Origin: a virus
Taxonomy: Duplodnaviria; Caudoviricetes
Strand: one strand, 5' to 3'
Length of the DNA: 48,433 nucleotides
Virus record (IMG/VR): IMGVR_UViG_3300033076_001576
Span: 1-48,433 of that record
The position numbers and the translations under genes are program-made. Positions 1,958 through 12,938 of the stretch are shown piece after piece (within the stretch, counting starts at the first letter, position 1; each line of letters starts with the position of its first letter). The notes beneath the pieces are model-generated. The model was not told the origin of the DNA. It was given only the letters and a program-made list of their open reading frames with translations, and searched no databases.

Positions 1958-2019
1958 GCCCCTACTGCTGCGGATACACGCACAATCAGGATAGTTCGCA
2001 AACCGCAGCGACTCGGGGC
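1958..2019 (+). ncRNA. Y RNA-like stem-loop, unit 1
   Basis: GCCCC-TACT-GCTGCGG-ATACACG...AAA-CCGCAGC-GACTC-GGGGC; both helices pair perfectly. Confidence 0.75.
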
Positions 2020-2028
2020 ACCAGAAAA

Positions 2029-2098
2029 GCCGTTACTGTTGGAGATACATGTGGGGGTTTGCGCCCCTGCCCAATCTCAAACTCCAGCGACTTACGGC
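2029..2098 (+). ncRNA. Y RNA-like stem-loop, unit 2
   Basis: GCCGT-TACT-GTTGGAG-ATACATG...AAA-CTCCAGC-GACTT-ACGGC; internal G/C hairpin at 2051-2070. Confidence 0.75.
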
Positions 2099-2107
2099 CC
2101 CTTTTCA

Positions 2108-2166
2108 AGCTGCTACTTGGTGAGATACACGCAAGCATAGTCGCAAAGCTCGCCAGACTCGCAGCT
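2108..2166 (+). ncRNA. Y RNA-like stem-loop, unit 3
   Basis: AGCTGC-TACT-TGGTGAG-ATACACG...AAAG-CTCGCCA-GACTC-GCAGCT. Confidence 0.75.
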
Positions 2167-2174
2167 CTCAAATT

Positions 2175-2300
2175 CGCTACAACTTGCCGAGATACATGCA
2201 ATTTCAATGCCGGGGTCAGGGGTTCGAATCCCCTCTTCGAAGTGGATTCTTCGAAGTAGCTCAGTGGTAGAGCACGAAACCCCTCGACAGACTCGTAGCG
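2175..2300 (+). ncRNA. YrlA-like Y RNA (unit 4) with a circularly permuted tRNA-like domain
   Basis: Same scaffold (CGCTAC-AACT-TGCCGAG-ATACATG...CTCGACA-GACTC-GTAGCG). It encloses a T-arm AGGGG-TTCGAAT-CCCCT (2218-2234), a loop-closed acceptor-like stem (2235-2256) and a D-arm TA-GCTC-AGTGGTA-GAGC-A (2257-2274). Adjacent to the Ro60-like gene. Confidence 0.88.
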
Positions 2301-2308
2301 ATCATTTC

Positions 2309-2337
2309 AAGAGGGGGGCGATTGTGCCCCCTCTTTT
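2309..2337 (+). terminator. GC-rich hairpin with short U tract (terminator/attenuator or processing stem)
   Basis: AAGAGGGGGGC-GATTGT-GCCCCCTCTT followed by TT. Confidence 0.55.
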
Positions 2338-2354
2338 CCTGGAGAGAAAGAGAC

Positions 2355-3779
2355 ATGAAAGAGCAGGCGTTTTCGAGGAATCGAGCGGTGTCGATGCTGC
2401 TCAAGTCCCCGCACGGGGAGCTGAAGGGATACGTCGAACCGACGCAAAGGACCGGGGAACAAGACCCCGAGTTCCTCGCCCGGCTGACGGCCTGGAACCT
2501 GAAGAACGGGAAGATTCGCGACAGCAAGGTTGCGCTTCCCGTCATCTCGCTGGGGATCGAGAAGATTTCCGCCGAGCCGGAATTCCTCGACAACGCCCTG
2601 GCGGCGTTCGCGAGCCTCTCTCCGCGGGAGATGGTCCGCTCGATGCGGTTCGCCTACGAAATTCCTGGTGTGTCGAAGAGGAAACTCGCGAAGGTTGCCG
2701 CCGCGAAGCTCGCCGCCCTGGAGAGCAAGCCGGCGAAGTTCGCTCGCGTGGCGATGCAGCACAAGCACTCGCTGCAGGAGATGTACGCGCTCTCCCACAC
2801 CAAGGCGAATGAACAAGCTCGCCAGCTCGTTTTCGGGCGAGGGGAGAAGACGATCGTCGGCCAGCTCGCCGGGATGTCCGACGCCGAGGCAGCTGGAACG
2901 ATCCTCGAGATGAAGATTCCCTTCCTCGCCGCCGCAGGCGCGTTGGGGAAGCGCTCCTCGTCGCCGGTGATCCTTTCCGCCTTGATGAGGAATATGACTC
3001 CCACGGAGGTCGTGACGAACATCAAGCGGCTCGAGAAGCTGGGTGTCCGCCAGGATGCAGCATTGCGGGCGGAACTCGAAGACAAGATGGCCGCCGTGAG
3101 CAGCTCGACCACGGCGATCCTCAAGACCTCGAAGGCGGCTGCCCTCCTCGCGGGAACGGAGACCGGAGAGAAGCTTGCGGCCACGCAAGAGCGCCAGCTG
3201 GACGCCATCGGCGTGAAGGGGAACTGGTTGATCCTCGCGGACAAGAGCGGCTCGATGGAGCAGTGCATCGAGGCAGCCCGGCATGTTGCCGCCACGCTCG
3301 CGAGGGTCTCCGAGGGAGAAACGCAGCTCACCTTCTTCGACACCAACGCAACGAGCTTCCCTGTGACGGGAAAGAGCTACGAGGAGATCTCCAGCATCTC
3401 TCGGTTCGTTCGAGCCAACGGAGGGACTTCGATCGGGATCGGCGTCAGGCATGCCCTGGCTTCTAAGTTCTCCGCCGACGGCATCGTGATCGTGACGGAC
3501 GGGGAGGAAAATGCCAATCCCCGTTTCCACGAGGAGTACGTCCGCTACACCGAGTTCTTGGGGAAGGAAGTCCCCGTCTACGTCTATCGCATCGGGAGGG
3601 AGAGGAACAGCCTCGAAGATCGCTGCGAGCGAGATGGAATCTCCCTCCAAGTCTTCGACATCGCTGGCGTGGATTACTACTCCCTGCCCAACCTCATCCT
3701 CACGATGAGGACCAACATGTTTTCCCTCTCCGACGAGATCATGTCGCAGCCGTTGTTGCGTCTCGCGGATGTCCTTTAA
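2355..3779 (+). CDS. Ro60/Rsr-like TROVE + vWA domain RNA-binding protein
   Basis: Helical N-terminal region with QDPEFLARL..W....IRD. C-terminal vWA/MIDAS motifs LADKSGSM, GGTSIG, IVIVTDGEEN. About 474 aa; GGAG upstream of ATG 2355; tRNA-like Y RNA immediately upstream. Confidence 0.85.
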   Translation: MKEQAFSRNRAVSMLLKSPHGELKGYVEPTQRTGEQDPEFLARLTAWNLKNGKIRDSKVALPVISLGIEKISAEPEFLDNALAAFASLSPREMVRSMRFAYEIPGVSKRKLAKVAAAKLAALESKPAKFARVAMQHKHSLQEMYALSHTKANEQARQLVFGRGEKTIVGQLAGMSDAEAAGTILEMKIPFLAAAGALGKRSSSPVILSALMRNMTPTEVVTNIKRLEKLGVRQDAALRAELEDKMAAVSSSTTAILKTSKAAALLAGTETGEKLAATQERQLDAIGVKGNWLILADKSGSMEQCIEAARHVAATLARVSEGETQLTFFDTNATSFPVTGKSYEEISSISRFVRANGGTSIGIGVRHALASKFSADGIVIVTDGEENANPRFHEEYVRYTEFLGKEVPVYVYRIGRERNSLEDRCERDGISLQVFDIAGVDYYSLPNLILTMRTNMFSLSDEIMSQPLLRLADVL

Positions 3780-3831: not shown

Positions 3832-4140
3832 ATGTACGAGAAACTGCGCCAGATCAACCTCCAGCGCGCCGAGACCGACGAGCTGGTGGCGCTCTATTCC
3901 TTCGGCACCGTGATGGCCACGAGCTACCGCGACTTCCAAGTCCCGGAACCGGACTGGTTGAAGGAGAACCTGGCGGGTCTCCGGCGGGAGATCACGTCGC
4001 GCCACCGCGACATGCTGGAGAGCCGCCTCCGCGACATCCGCTCGCGCCGCGAAGCGCTGGCCACCCCGGAAGAGAAGCGCTCGCGTCTCGACGCCGAGGA
4101 GAAGCGCCTGATCGAGGCCCTCGGAGGGAAGTCGGAGTGA
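3832..4140 (+). CDS. hypothetical coiled-coil protein downstream of Ro60
   Basis: AAGGAA RBS, MYEKLRQINL..., charged helical C-terminus. Confidence 0.75.
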   Translation: MYEKLRQINLQRAETDELVALYSFGTVMATSYRDFQVPEPDWLKENLAGLRREITSRHRDMLESRLRDIRSRREALATPEEKRSRLDAEEKRLIEALGGKSE

Positions 4141-11524: not shown

Positions 11525-11530
11525 TCGAGT

Positions 11531-11557
11531 GGGAGGGCTTCGGCCCTCCCCTTTTTT
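11531..11557 (+). terminator. Rho-independent terminator
   Basis: GGGAGGGC-TTCG-GCCCTCCC-C-TTTTTT. Confidence 0.9.
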
Positions 11558-11570
11558 AACCAAGGAAATC

Positions 11571-12938
11571 ATGAAGATCCTGGACATCAACGAAATCGTT
11601 GTGCCGCCGAACCGGCAGCGAAAAAAGTTCGACCCGCAACGCATCGCGGACTTGCGAGTCTCGATCACGGAGACCGCCTACGGCTTGCAGAATGCCGTCG
11701 TGATCAGGAGAAGCGAGAACGATCTTCCCCTTCTGGTTTCCGGCGAACGGCGGTTGCGGGCCGCCCAGGAAGCATTCGAACTCGGGATACCGCTGAGGCA
11801 CGCCGGGGAAGTTCTTCCCGTCGGCAAGATCCCGGTGGTTGACGTGGCCGACCTCGACCCCATCGACGCGTTCGAGGCGGAACTCGAGGAGAACATCAAC
11901 CGAGAAGACCTCACCATGATCGAGCAGGCGCAGGCGACTGCGCAGCTGCTCGAGCTCAGGACGAAGCAGGCGGAAAGAGACGGCAAGCCAGCGCCAAAGG
12001 CAATCGACATCGCTGCGGAGCTGGCGGACATCGAGAAGCCAAACAGCCGTGAAACCTGGAAGGAGGCGGCCGCCGCCCACACGAAGGTTCGGGATCAGCT
12101 GATCGTCGCCCGGCACGCCGAAGACCCCGAGGTTCGCAAGGCAACCTCCCTCAAGGAGGCGGTCAAGATTATCAAGAAGAAAGAGGATGACAAGCGCAAC
12201 GTCGCGCTGGCGGCAACTCACGGCGCCATCTTCAAGTCGTCTTCCCATCAGCTCTTCAATGCGGACTGCCTGGCCTGGTTGGAAGCAGCGCCGGCGGCCA
12301 CCTTCAACCTCGTAATCACGGACCCTCCCTACGGAATCAACGCTCACGAGTTCAACGACTCCGGAGTCGGCACCTCGGCCGACGCCCACTTCTACGATGA
12401 CTCTCCCGAGTCCTGGTCCGCGCTCATGCAGGTGCTCCCCGCGGCACTCTTTCGTGTCACTGCGGACGAAGCTCACGCCTATCTTTTCTGCGACGTTGAT
12501 CGCTTTCCCGAACTGCGCCTTCGGATGTCCGAGGCGGGATGGAAGGTTCATCGCACTCCGCTGATCTGGCACAACCCCGATGGCTTCCGGGCGCCGTGGC
12601 CTGAGCACGGGCCGCAGCGGAAGTACGAGATGATCCTTTACGCCAGGAAGGGGGACAGGAAAACCAACAAGCTTCTCGGAGACGTGATCGAGTGCAGGAA
12701 GGATTCCGCTCTCGGTCACCCCGCGCAGAAGCCAGTGGCCTTGATCGAGAACCTGCTCATGCGGAGCGCCCGCCCAGGGGATAAGGTGATTGATCCCTTT
12801 GCCGGCAGCGGGGCCACAATCGAAGCCTGCAACAATCACAAGCTCGCCTGCACCGCCATCGAAAAGGATGCGGGCGCTTACGCAATCTCGCTGAAGCGTC
12901 TCAAGGCGCTCAGCGCTTTTGACGAGGGACTGTTCTGA
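11571..12938 (+). CDS. ParB-like N-terminal domain fused to an N6A/N4C DNA methyltransferase (beta-type motif order)
   Basis: RQRKKFD...LVSGERRLRA...ELEENINREDL (ParB); ITDPPYG, HPAQKP, DPFAGSG (MTase). Confidence 0.88.
   Translation: MKILDINEIVVPPNRQRKKFDPQRIADLRVSITETAYGLQNAVVIRRSENDLPLLVSGERRLRAAQEAFELGIPLRHAGEVLPVGKIPVVDVADLDPIDAFEAELEENINREDLTMIEQAQATAQLLELRTKQAERDGKPAPKAIDIAAELADIEKPNSRETWKEAAAAHTKVRDQLIVARHAEDPEVRKATSLKEAVKIIKKKEDDKRNVALAATHGAIFKSSSHQLFNADCLAWLEAAPAATFNLVITDPPYGINAHEFNDSGVGTSADAHFYDDSPESWSALMQVLPAALFRVTADEAHAYLFCDVDRFPELRLRMSEAGWKVHRTPLIWHNPDGFRAPWPEHGPQRKYEMILYARKGDRKTNKLLGDVIECRKDSALGHPAQKPVALIENLLMRSARPGDKVIDPFAGSGATIEACNNHKLACTAIEKDAGAYAISLKRLKALSAFDEGLF

Follow-up and report, generated by a model that had tools for sequence, protein, structure and literature searches.

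An exchangeable anticodon loop in permuted tRNA-like Y RNA units beside a phage Ro60-like gene

The virus record IMGVR_UViG_3300033076_001576 was analysed over its full length of 48,433 nt, referred to here as the window. The record is estimated to be complete, and terminase, portal, capsid and polymerase genes were identified among the 46 ORFs scanned against PHROGs; a fusion of a ParB domain with a DNA methyltransferase is encoded at 11529–12938. ARAGORN found no ordinary tRNA gene in the full 48,433 nt, that is, no linear cloverleaf with a free acceptor end, and an Rfam scan of the record at the gathering threshold gave no match. Positions 1958–2300 hold four copies of a carrier, an array that does not appear as a family among the repeats listed by the repeat finder. 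Each carrier is built of an outer helix of 5–6 bp, an internal loop (NACT/GACT), an inner helix and the motif TACA, and then holds a payload (Table 1). Unit 3 is absent from some close relatives, as seen at a joint of 2057–2156 in runs X2, X4 and X5, and the array appears from such sequences to gain and lose units. The unit 2 payload also differs across this joint in the same three runs, and one contig of X2 contains an additional carrier-like payload, its loop being Pro(UGG)-like. Directly 5' of the array lies a gene for a stand-alone PNK-type 3'-phosphatase domain (1329–1847), separated from it by a 13-pair hairpin (1848–1877).

Table 1. Features of the RNA array, of its fourth unit and of the genes that follow
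Feature	Position	Strand	Basis or detail
Unit 1, carrier with short payload	1958..2019	+	carrier architecture
Unit 2, carrier with G-C-rich hairpin payload	2029..2098	+	carrier architecture
Unit 3, carrier with short hairpin	2109..2165	+	7-nt loop with CAU, G at position 33
Unit 4, carrier stem with circularly permuted tRNA core	2175..2300	+	predicted RNA of ~126 nt
Unit 4, carrier 5' strand	2175..2197	+	outer helix, NACT internal loop, inner helix, TACA motif
Unit 4, anticodon arm (tRNA positions 29–43)	2198..2212	+	GCA 2198–2200; loop ATTTCAA 2201–2207 (A32, U33, anticodon UUC at 2203–2205, A37, A38); TGCCG 2208–2212
Unit 4, variable loop and T arm	2213..2234	+	variable loop 2213–2217; T arm 2218–2234
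Unit 4, sealed acceptor-like hairpin	2235..2256	+	8 bp, 6-nt loop, without CCA
Unit 4, U8-A9 to position 28	2257..2276	+	U8-A9 2257–2258; D arm 2259–2273; A26 2274; CG 2275–2276 (positions 27–28) completing the anticodon stem
Unit 4, carrier 3' strand	2277..2300	+	GACT motif
Terminator-like hairpin with T run, 3' of the array	2313..2340	+	consensus match only
Divergent Ro60/TROVE-like protein, 474 aa, helical repeats and vWA domain	2355..3779	+	predicted model
Protein of 102 aa, no assigned family, apparently helical, directly after the Ro-like gene	3832..4140	+	

Unit 4 corresponds to a tRNA whose chain is interrupted between positions 28 and 29, while its acceptor end is sealed and its anticodon arm kept; the T arm, closed acceptor stem-loop and D arm follow in permuted order and carry the bases of the tRNA tertiary contacts. 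When the sequence was read again, every element of the permuted cloverleaf named in the original prediction was found in its place. That prediction also proposed two checks against existing models. Re-permuted in silico, unit 4 was called as tRNA-Glu(ttc) by ARAGORN, but most other cut points were accepted too, with many anticodons, so that this test alone is weak and reliance was placed on comparison. The Rfam YrlA model (RF02553) matched 2195–2305, but with 32.9 bits (E 2.6e-5), below the gathering score of 69 and at an E-value at which matches also arise in 9 of 14 control genomes.

The Ro-like ORF begins 54 nt after the end of unit 4 on the same strand, well within the 4 kb in which a Ro60 gene is expected for YrlA. 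Its predicted structure (pLDDT 89.9) is a ring of helical repeats closed by a vWA domain, and the top 13 Foldseek matches are all Ro60/Rsr proteins, with TM-scores of 0.58–0.67 over 13 Ro60 chains (best match 9kop, E 1.2e-11, TM 0.63; 2nvo, TM 0.67). The protein is 13–18% identical to solved Ro60s, has no match to Pfam TROVE, and scores 18.8 bits against the vWA_Ro60 cut-off of 27.7. It has 520 homologues; in GenBank phages just two distant ones were found, both uncultured. Bas63 gp130 was considered as a close relative and rejected, being distant and of another family; the 740 nt upstream of its gene, viewed by eye, contained no carrier-like units.

In 106 of the 143 loci with room for one, a homologue of the 102-aa protein is encoded no more than 300 nt from the Ro-like gene. 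The protein has no match in Pfam, PHROG or PADLOC and no usable Atlas match, and is a candidate third component. The PNK-phosphatase gene was discarded as a part of the system, since a homologue was found in 0 of 167 related loci. Other genes recur near the Ro-like gene: an ORF cluster with an HNH endonuclease representative occurs in 59 of the 167 loci, one member being placed between the RNA units and the Ro-like gene (L049:1924-2472), RF-1-domain genes occur in nine loci (e.g., L024:4673-5026), and an SpoU methylase in five (e.g., L109:4863-5372).

Related loci were collected with a 53-homologue alignment of the Ro-like protein, which was needed because a search with the single protein found nothing; 168 loci were fetched. 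The carrier architecture was found 237 times in 99 loci, 232 times on the strand of the Ro-like gene. Carriers are present in 84 of the 123 loci having 1.5 kb of upstream sequence, and 223 of 228 family units are located upstream of the Ro-like gene. Distinct units in which TACA, a T arm and a D arm were all recognised numbered 88, and 51 of them have a spacer of 18–22 nt like that of unit 4; the other 37, which include other permutations, were left out of the arm count. A redundancy filter reduced the 51 to 43 family units, unit 4 included, and the register was set on the three hairpin pairs only, in real units and shuffles alike.

The composite 5-bp anticodon stem with its 7-nt loop, which the original prediction expected homologues to conserve, is indeed kept: a perfect split stem forms in 32 of the 43 family units (mean 0.9, maximum 5 in 2000 shuffles). 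In 37 of 43 units 27-43 and 28-42 are both paired, compared with a mean of 15.7 and a maximum of 25 when bases were permuted among units 10000 times. All four Watson-Crick pairs occur at 28-42 (GC 23, TA 8, CG 5, AT 4 in the 43 units), a position that covaries. U33 is found in 34 and a purine at 37 in 41 of the 43. In an unguided MAFFT alignment 89.5% of cells pair, a value reached by 0 of 500 shuffles and by none of the slid partners (at most 66%), relatedness being left aside in this comparison. A second sample was drawn with a DNA pattern that placed no condition on the arm, yielding at least 120 loci from 28 of 64 parts; 60 of 120 loci had a Ro60 homologue in their short flank. Here a perfect split stem was present in 65 of 110 non-redundant permuted units (shuffle 1.8), and the 65 had U33 in 57, a purine at 37 in 63, and 27 anticodons. 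On these comparative grounds the anticodon arm exceeds chance.

The arm could alternatively be a relic of the tandem tRNA transcript that gave rise to Y RNA, with only the elbow mattering now. A dimeric-tRNA origin has been modelled (Wang 2018), the YrlAs of Salmonella and P. fulva are without the arm in the published alignment, and the arm is imperfect or absent in 11 of 43 family units and 45 of 110 pattern-search units. Tandem ordinary tRNA genes, however, cross-pair at 27-43 and 28-42 in just 13 of 67 cases, against 37 of 43 and 80 of 110 here; the four Watson-Crick pairs at 28-42 and the survival of the loop rules when anticodons are exchanged on identical stems (see below) likewise speak against a relic. 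As a family-wide account it is very improbable and largely refuted, although it may hold for single degenerate units.

Free-energy folding does not support the split stem of unit 4, since a competing helix is preferred. In the nearest-neighbour model the 2-bp split part has a probability of 0.0 and the 3-bp hairpin one of ~0.4, the split stem being disfavoured because 2212–2216 can pair with 2279–2283; the fold with the competing helix has −40.2 kcal/mol as against −35.1 kcal/mol, in a model that ignores tRNA tertiary contacts. Relatives differ at 2213 and, in some cases, at 2281, changes that would weaken the competing helix.

Unit 4 resembles YrlA in its T arm, sealed acceptor hairpin and D arm, in their permuted order, in the long stem joining its 5' and 3' ends, in lying shortly upstream of a Ro60-fold gene in the same orientation, and in a UA-containing motif ahead of the tRNA part. 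It differs from YrlA as described in its complete, conserved anticodon arm. The Ro-binding motif of YrlA, GNCGAA (GNCGAAN0-1G), was found in 0 of 232 carriers, which have NACT/GACT instead; a GCCGAG at 2186–2191 in unit 4 is not conserved in units 1–3. Also unlike YrlA, this family has the conserved 102-aa gene downstream and arrays with several permutation points. The family shares the plan, and presumably the way of working, of YrlA and is set apart by the GNCGAA motif, the Rfam threshold and the description of YrlA as having no anticodon loop. Thermus phage phiLo likewise has several Y-like RNAs (Yrl1 and Yrl2) upstream of a phage Ro60, which is the best structural match of the Ro-like protein (PDB 9kop); its Yrl1/2 carry the CGAA motif, unlike the units here (PMC12135203). 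The word "anticodon" is absent from the main text of that paper.

Chen et al. 2014 (PMC4201824) place a hairpin of lower conservation, "V", ahead of the T arm of YrlA, and Wang et al. 2018 (bioRxiv 10.1101/312249) state that YrlA lacks an anticodon loop; the crystallised YrlA is the Salmonella RNA. The original prediction took the same view of YrlA, which does not agree with several of the published sequences. For the phage loci of Chen Table S2, as taken from GenBank, a perfect arm is present in three of four parsed units, with Ser(UGA) in ET08, Gln(CUG) in CcrColossus and UAU in phage G, and a further CcrColossus unit has Asn(GUU) by eye. The 11-row YrlA alignment of Chen et al., compared by eye only, has five rows with a 5-bp split stem and a 7-nt loop (M. 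smegmatis and Streptosporangium Arg(UCU), Gordonia CAU, R. etli Asn(GUU), and ET08); Gloeocapsa has four of five pairs, Salmonella and P. fulva have no arm, and three rows were left unparsed. Among bacterial Rfam matches in three samples of 151 genomes, the arm was found in three of eight parsed units. Judged from these sequences, published YrlAs often have this anticodon arm, labelled "V", and the arm is not peculiar to the present phage but common in phage YrlA RNAs. No description of an anticodon arm in YrlA was found by full-text searches; subscription papers and reviews were covered in part, and a prior mention is possible.

The anticodon itself is exchanged. In phages nearly identical to this one, differences at 2201, 2204 and 2205 produce a Thr(UGU) loop while the stem is unchanged. 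Contigs with UGU come from runs X2, X4, X5 and X6 of one study and X3 of another, and represent one allele in five of eight runs, each contig with a depth <5; of the remaining runs, X1 is possibly the source of the record and X7 and X8 have no phage cover of the loop. Pieces of ordinary tRNAs of other organisms were set aside in X3, X6 and X8. Three of the four differences between a 131-nt contig and unit 4 fall within the loop; at the 4.4% divergence of the adjacent gene the chance of three or more changes in 7 nt is 0.003, a post hoc value. Because near-identical phages carry Thr(UGU) on an unchanged stem, Glu is not a fixed identity, and the "Glu-like" label of the earlier annotation is not supported. 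The 103 pooled perfect units carry anticodons for 17 amino acids, and every stem seen more than once (21/21) occurs with more than one anticodon; the stem of unit 4 itself was found with UCC, UCA and UUC.

Loop rules persist through this exchange. In the 103 units, G37 accompanies G36 in 27 of 33 cases as against 4 of 70 otherwise (p 5e-15), and U36 is followed by A37-A38 in 46 of 49. A32 is found in 30 of the 103 and in 3 of 283 ordinary tRNA genes from the same loci, a frequency that argues against decoding; anticodons with A35 are scarce (7/103 as against 80/283). G36-G37 and U36-A37-A38 are the sequence rules of tRNA modification enzymes. The RNAs might then be ligands for other proteins that read tRNA, with the RNP binding or sequestering modification enzymes, synthetases or proteins that sense uncharged or damaged tRNA, and so reprogramming translation or silencing a stress signal. 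The preserved loop rules fit such a role, but modification enzymes serve many tRNAs, so that their sequestration would not require near-identical strains to switch anticodons, and uncharged-tRNA sensors read the 3' end, which the sealed acceptor removes. YrlA is modified by TruB and DusA (PMC4201824) and RtcR is activated by tRNA halves (PMC7790460), both of which favour this role; on balance we regard it as fairly unlikely.

The units could also be precursors of permuted tRNAs, as the original prediction allowed: the carrier would be excised and positions 28 and 29 ligated, RNase P would open the acceptor loop, and the addition of CCA would complete a functional tRNA. All tRNA parts are in register in unit 4, seven of seven acceptor pairs form in 71 of 92 units, both RNase P cleavage and acquisition of CCA are reported for M. 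smegmatis YrlA (Chen 2014, PMC4201824), and the route was raised by Wang 2018. The permuted tRNA genes of algae and an archaeon, as reviewed there, share with unit 4 a closed acceptor loop and an anticodon stem made from the two ends of the transcript; they mature to working tRNAs, the splicing endonuclease being described there as unreported in bacteria. Unlike those genes, the present units keep neither acceptor identity nor CCA and do not appear compatible with a mature tRNA. No association was found between acceptor identity (discriminator and acceptor pairs) and anticodon when pooled units were compared with ordinary genes: position 73 may be T, G, A or C in Lys units, whereas it is A in all 15 ordinary Lys genes of these loci. 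The acceptor is followed by CCA in just 13 of 92 units, and in 11 of 103 the hairpin is too short for an acceptor. The variable loop is of 4–5 nt in all 14 units with Ser anticodons, which thus lack the long variable arm. Unit 4 has an 8-bp stem and no CCA, A32 is frequent, and the same carrier holds cores opened elsewhere as well as bare hairpins. Because acceptor identity is independent of the anticodon and CCA is rare, the units are improbable tRNA precursors, and that option is disfavoured. A minority of units place N-CCA inside the loop after a 7-bp acceptor (L030:728, L031:2191, L094:1642, L174:1350 and, on the minus strand, L171 near 2342), and these could be opened by RNase P like M. 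smegmatis YrlA.

A payload census of 162 non-redundant carriers found the tRNA core opened in the anticodon stem in 30, at the acceptor in 33 and in the variable loop in 7 (four with the arm), while 54 had no detected T or D arm and 38 belonged to other or mis-parsed classes. Of the acceptor-opened cores 28 keep an anticodon stem of 4–5 bp, with U33 in 23 and a purine at 37 in 24. Short payloads begin with a bare hairpin having U33 and a purine at 37 in 15 of 45 cases (shuffle mean 0.9, maximum 5), a test that units 1–3 of this array do not pass. The anticodon loop is thus the part common to the payload types. Further types were seen: L011:1765, L026:1537, L022:1866 and L055 (near 1526) combine a short hairpin with a long variable arm and a class II-like D arm, giving Leu/Ser-like bodies on the same carrier, and payloads at L014 (near 1465), L096 (near 505) and L143:1955 are apparently opened inside the D loop, a further permutation point.

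The sequences, then, show a carrier stem, a full set of tRNA arms, a covarying split stem and tRNA-like loop rules; the anticodon is exchanged while the stem stays fixed, and acceptor identity is unlinked to the anticodon. A loop that is kept, obeys tRNA rules and is exchanged, on a body whose chargeable end is lost, fits display to an anticodon-reading enzyme, and for a phage the likeliest candidates, at about even odds, would be tRNA-cutting defences. The best reading, to which we give an even chance, is that the units are Ro60-held bait for host nucleases of this kind. The array would be transcribed and cut into units; the Ro60-like ring would bind the carrier stem and protect its ends; and the core would fold into an L shape, as Salmonella YrlA does. 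Host anticodon nucleases would then bind the loop and cut it or stall on it, sparing host tRNAs, while the sealed acceptor would exclude the RNA from charging and translation. The anticodon would be switched as the phage meets hosts with other nucleases. Of the interpretation first offered for unit 4, the decoy for anticodon nucleases is retained as the best reading and the fixed Glu identity is not.

Phages are reported to counter anticodon nucleases with tRNAs (PMC10264068). Such replacement tRNAs resemble the units in being phage-encoded, in having non-standard loop bases and in overlapping anticodons, such as Thr(UGU) and Lys(UUU) (PMC10264068, PMC12445682); they are chargeable and rescue by decoding, whereas unit 4, without a free 3' end, could only bind. 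The lack of any tRNA gene of the phage's own is counted in favour of bait. So is the cleavage site of P2-OLD, which prefers tRNA-Thr(UGU) and cuts between 28 and 29 (PMC12445682), the point at which these RNAs are opened. The OLD target motif, however, is present in 13 of 103 pooled units and 109 of 283 ordinary tRNAs; because it is rarer in the units, the match at 28/29 may be chance or avoidance, and OLD as a general target is not supported. The list of anticodons singles out no target, because known nucleases cover many anticodons.

Several observations count against bait: the competing helix predicted for the unit 4 allele, the failure of units 1–3 in the bare-hairpin test, and the presence of the arm in bacteria (three of eight units), where a decoy against a cell's own defences is less obvious. 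Stoichiometric decoys would also be needed in amounts near those of host tRNA or nuclease. Salmonella YrlA, which lacks the loop, was not cut by a RecA-dependent nuclease, competitive inhibition being suggested (Hughes 2020), and this too weighs against bait. So does Bas63 gp130, a distant Ro60-like phage protein that reportedly countered the Ppl defence alone, without phage RNAs (PMC11482910).

The counter-defence activity of that protein alone would also suit a tripwire or repair cofactor, in which cleavage of the loop opens the RNA and switches the Ro60 ring (as a gate, or a tether for PNPase or a ligase), sensing the nuclease rather than absorbing it. Y RNAs gate Ro60 and tether it to PNPase (Chen 2014, PMC4201824), phiLo Ro60 with its Y RNAs binds and attenuates host PNPase (PMC12135203), and RtcB is often found beside rsr and yrlA (Wang 2018). 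No RNA ligase, however, was found among the 46 ORFs of the record scanned with PHROGs, which are a subset, and the adjacent PNK-phosphatase gene has no homologue in the 167 related loci; we consider a tripwire unlikely.

If the bait reading is extended to the family, phage Ro60-Y RNA loci would be a programmable counter-defence: arrays of Ro-held RNAs, each presenting a single anticodon loop on a tRNA body that cannot be charged or on a bare hairpin, retargeted by anticodon switching against host tRNA-cutting nucleases, and the "variable arm" of most phage YrlAs and of M. smegmatis YrlA would be an anticodon arm overlooked since 2014. This wider proposal is tentative, and we lean slightly against it. 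Since 2014 the field has sought what the tRNA-like domain of Y RNAs, in bacteria and phages, binds and what it is for; with YrlA described as having no anticodon loop, a partner binding the elbow has been expected. The presence, in most of the phage units examined, of an anticodon loop that is under selection and can be switched points rather to enzymes that read anticodons. If true, the proposal adds a class of RNA decoys to phage counter-defence, explains why phages carry Ro60 with RNA arrays, and calls for revision of the structure of YrlAs already shown to be expressed. RNA genes of this kind were missed here by ARAGORN and by the Rfam threshold. Part of a CcrColossus Y unit (L171:2318-2385) is annotated as tRNA-Gln in GenBank, and Y RNAs may be among the phage tRNAs annotated close to Ro60 genes. 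Clusters of ordinary tRNAs also lie near the Ro-like gene in the larger phages.
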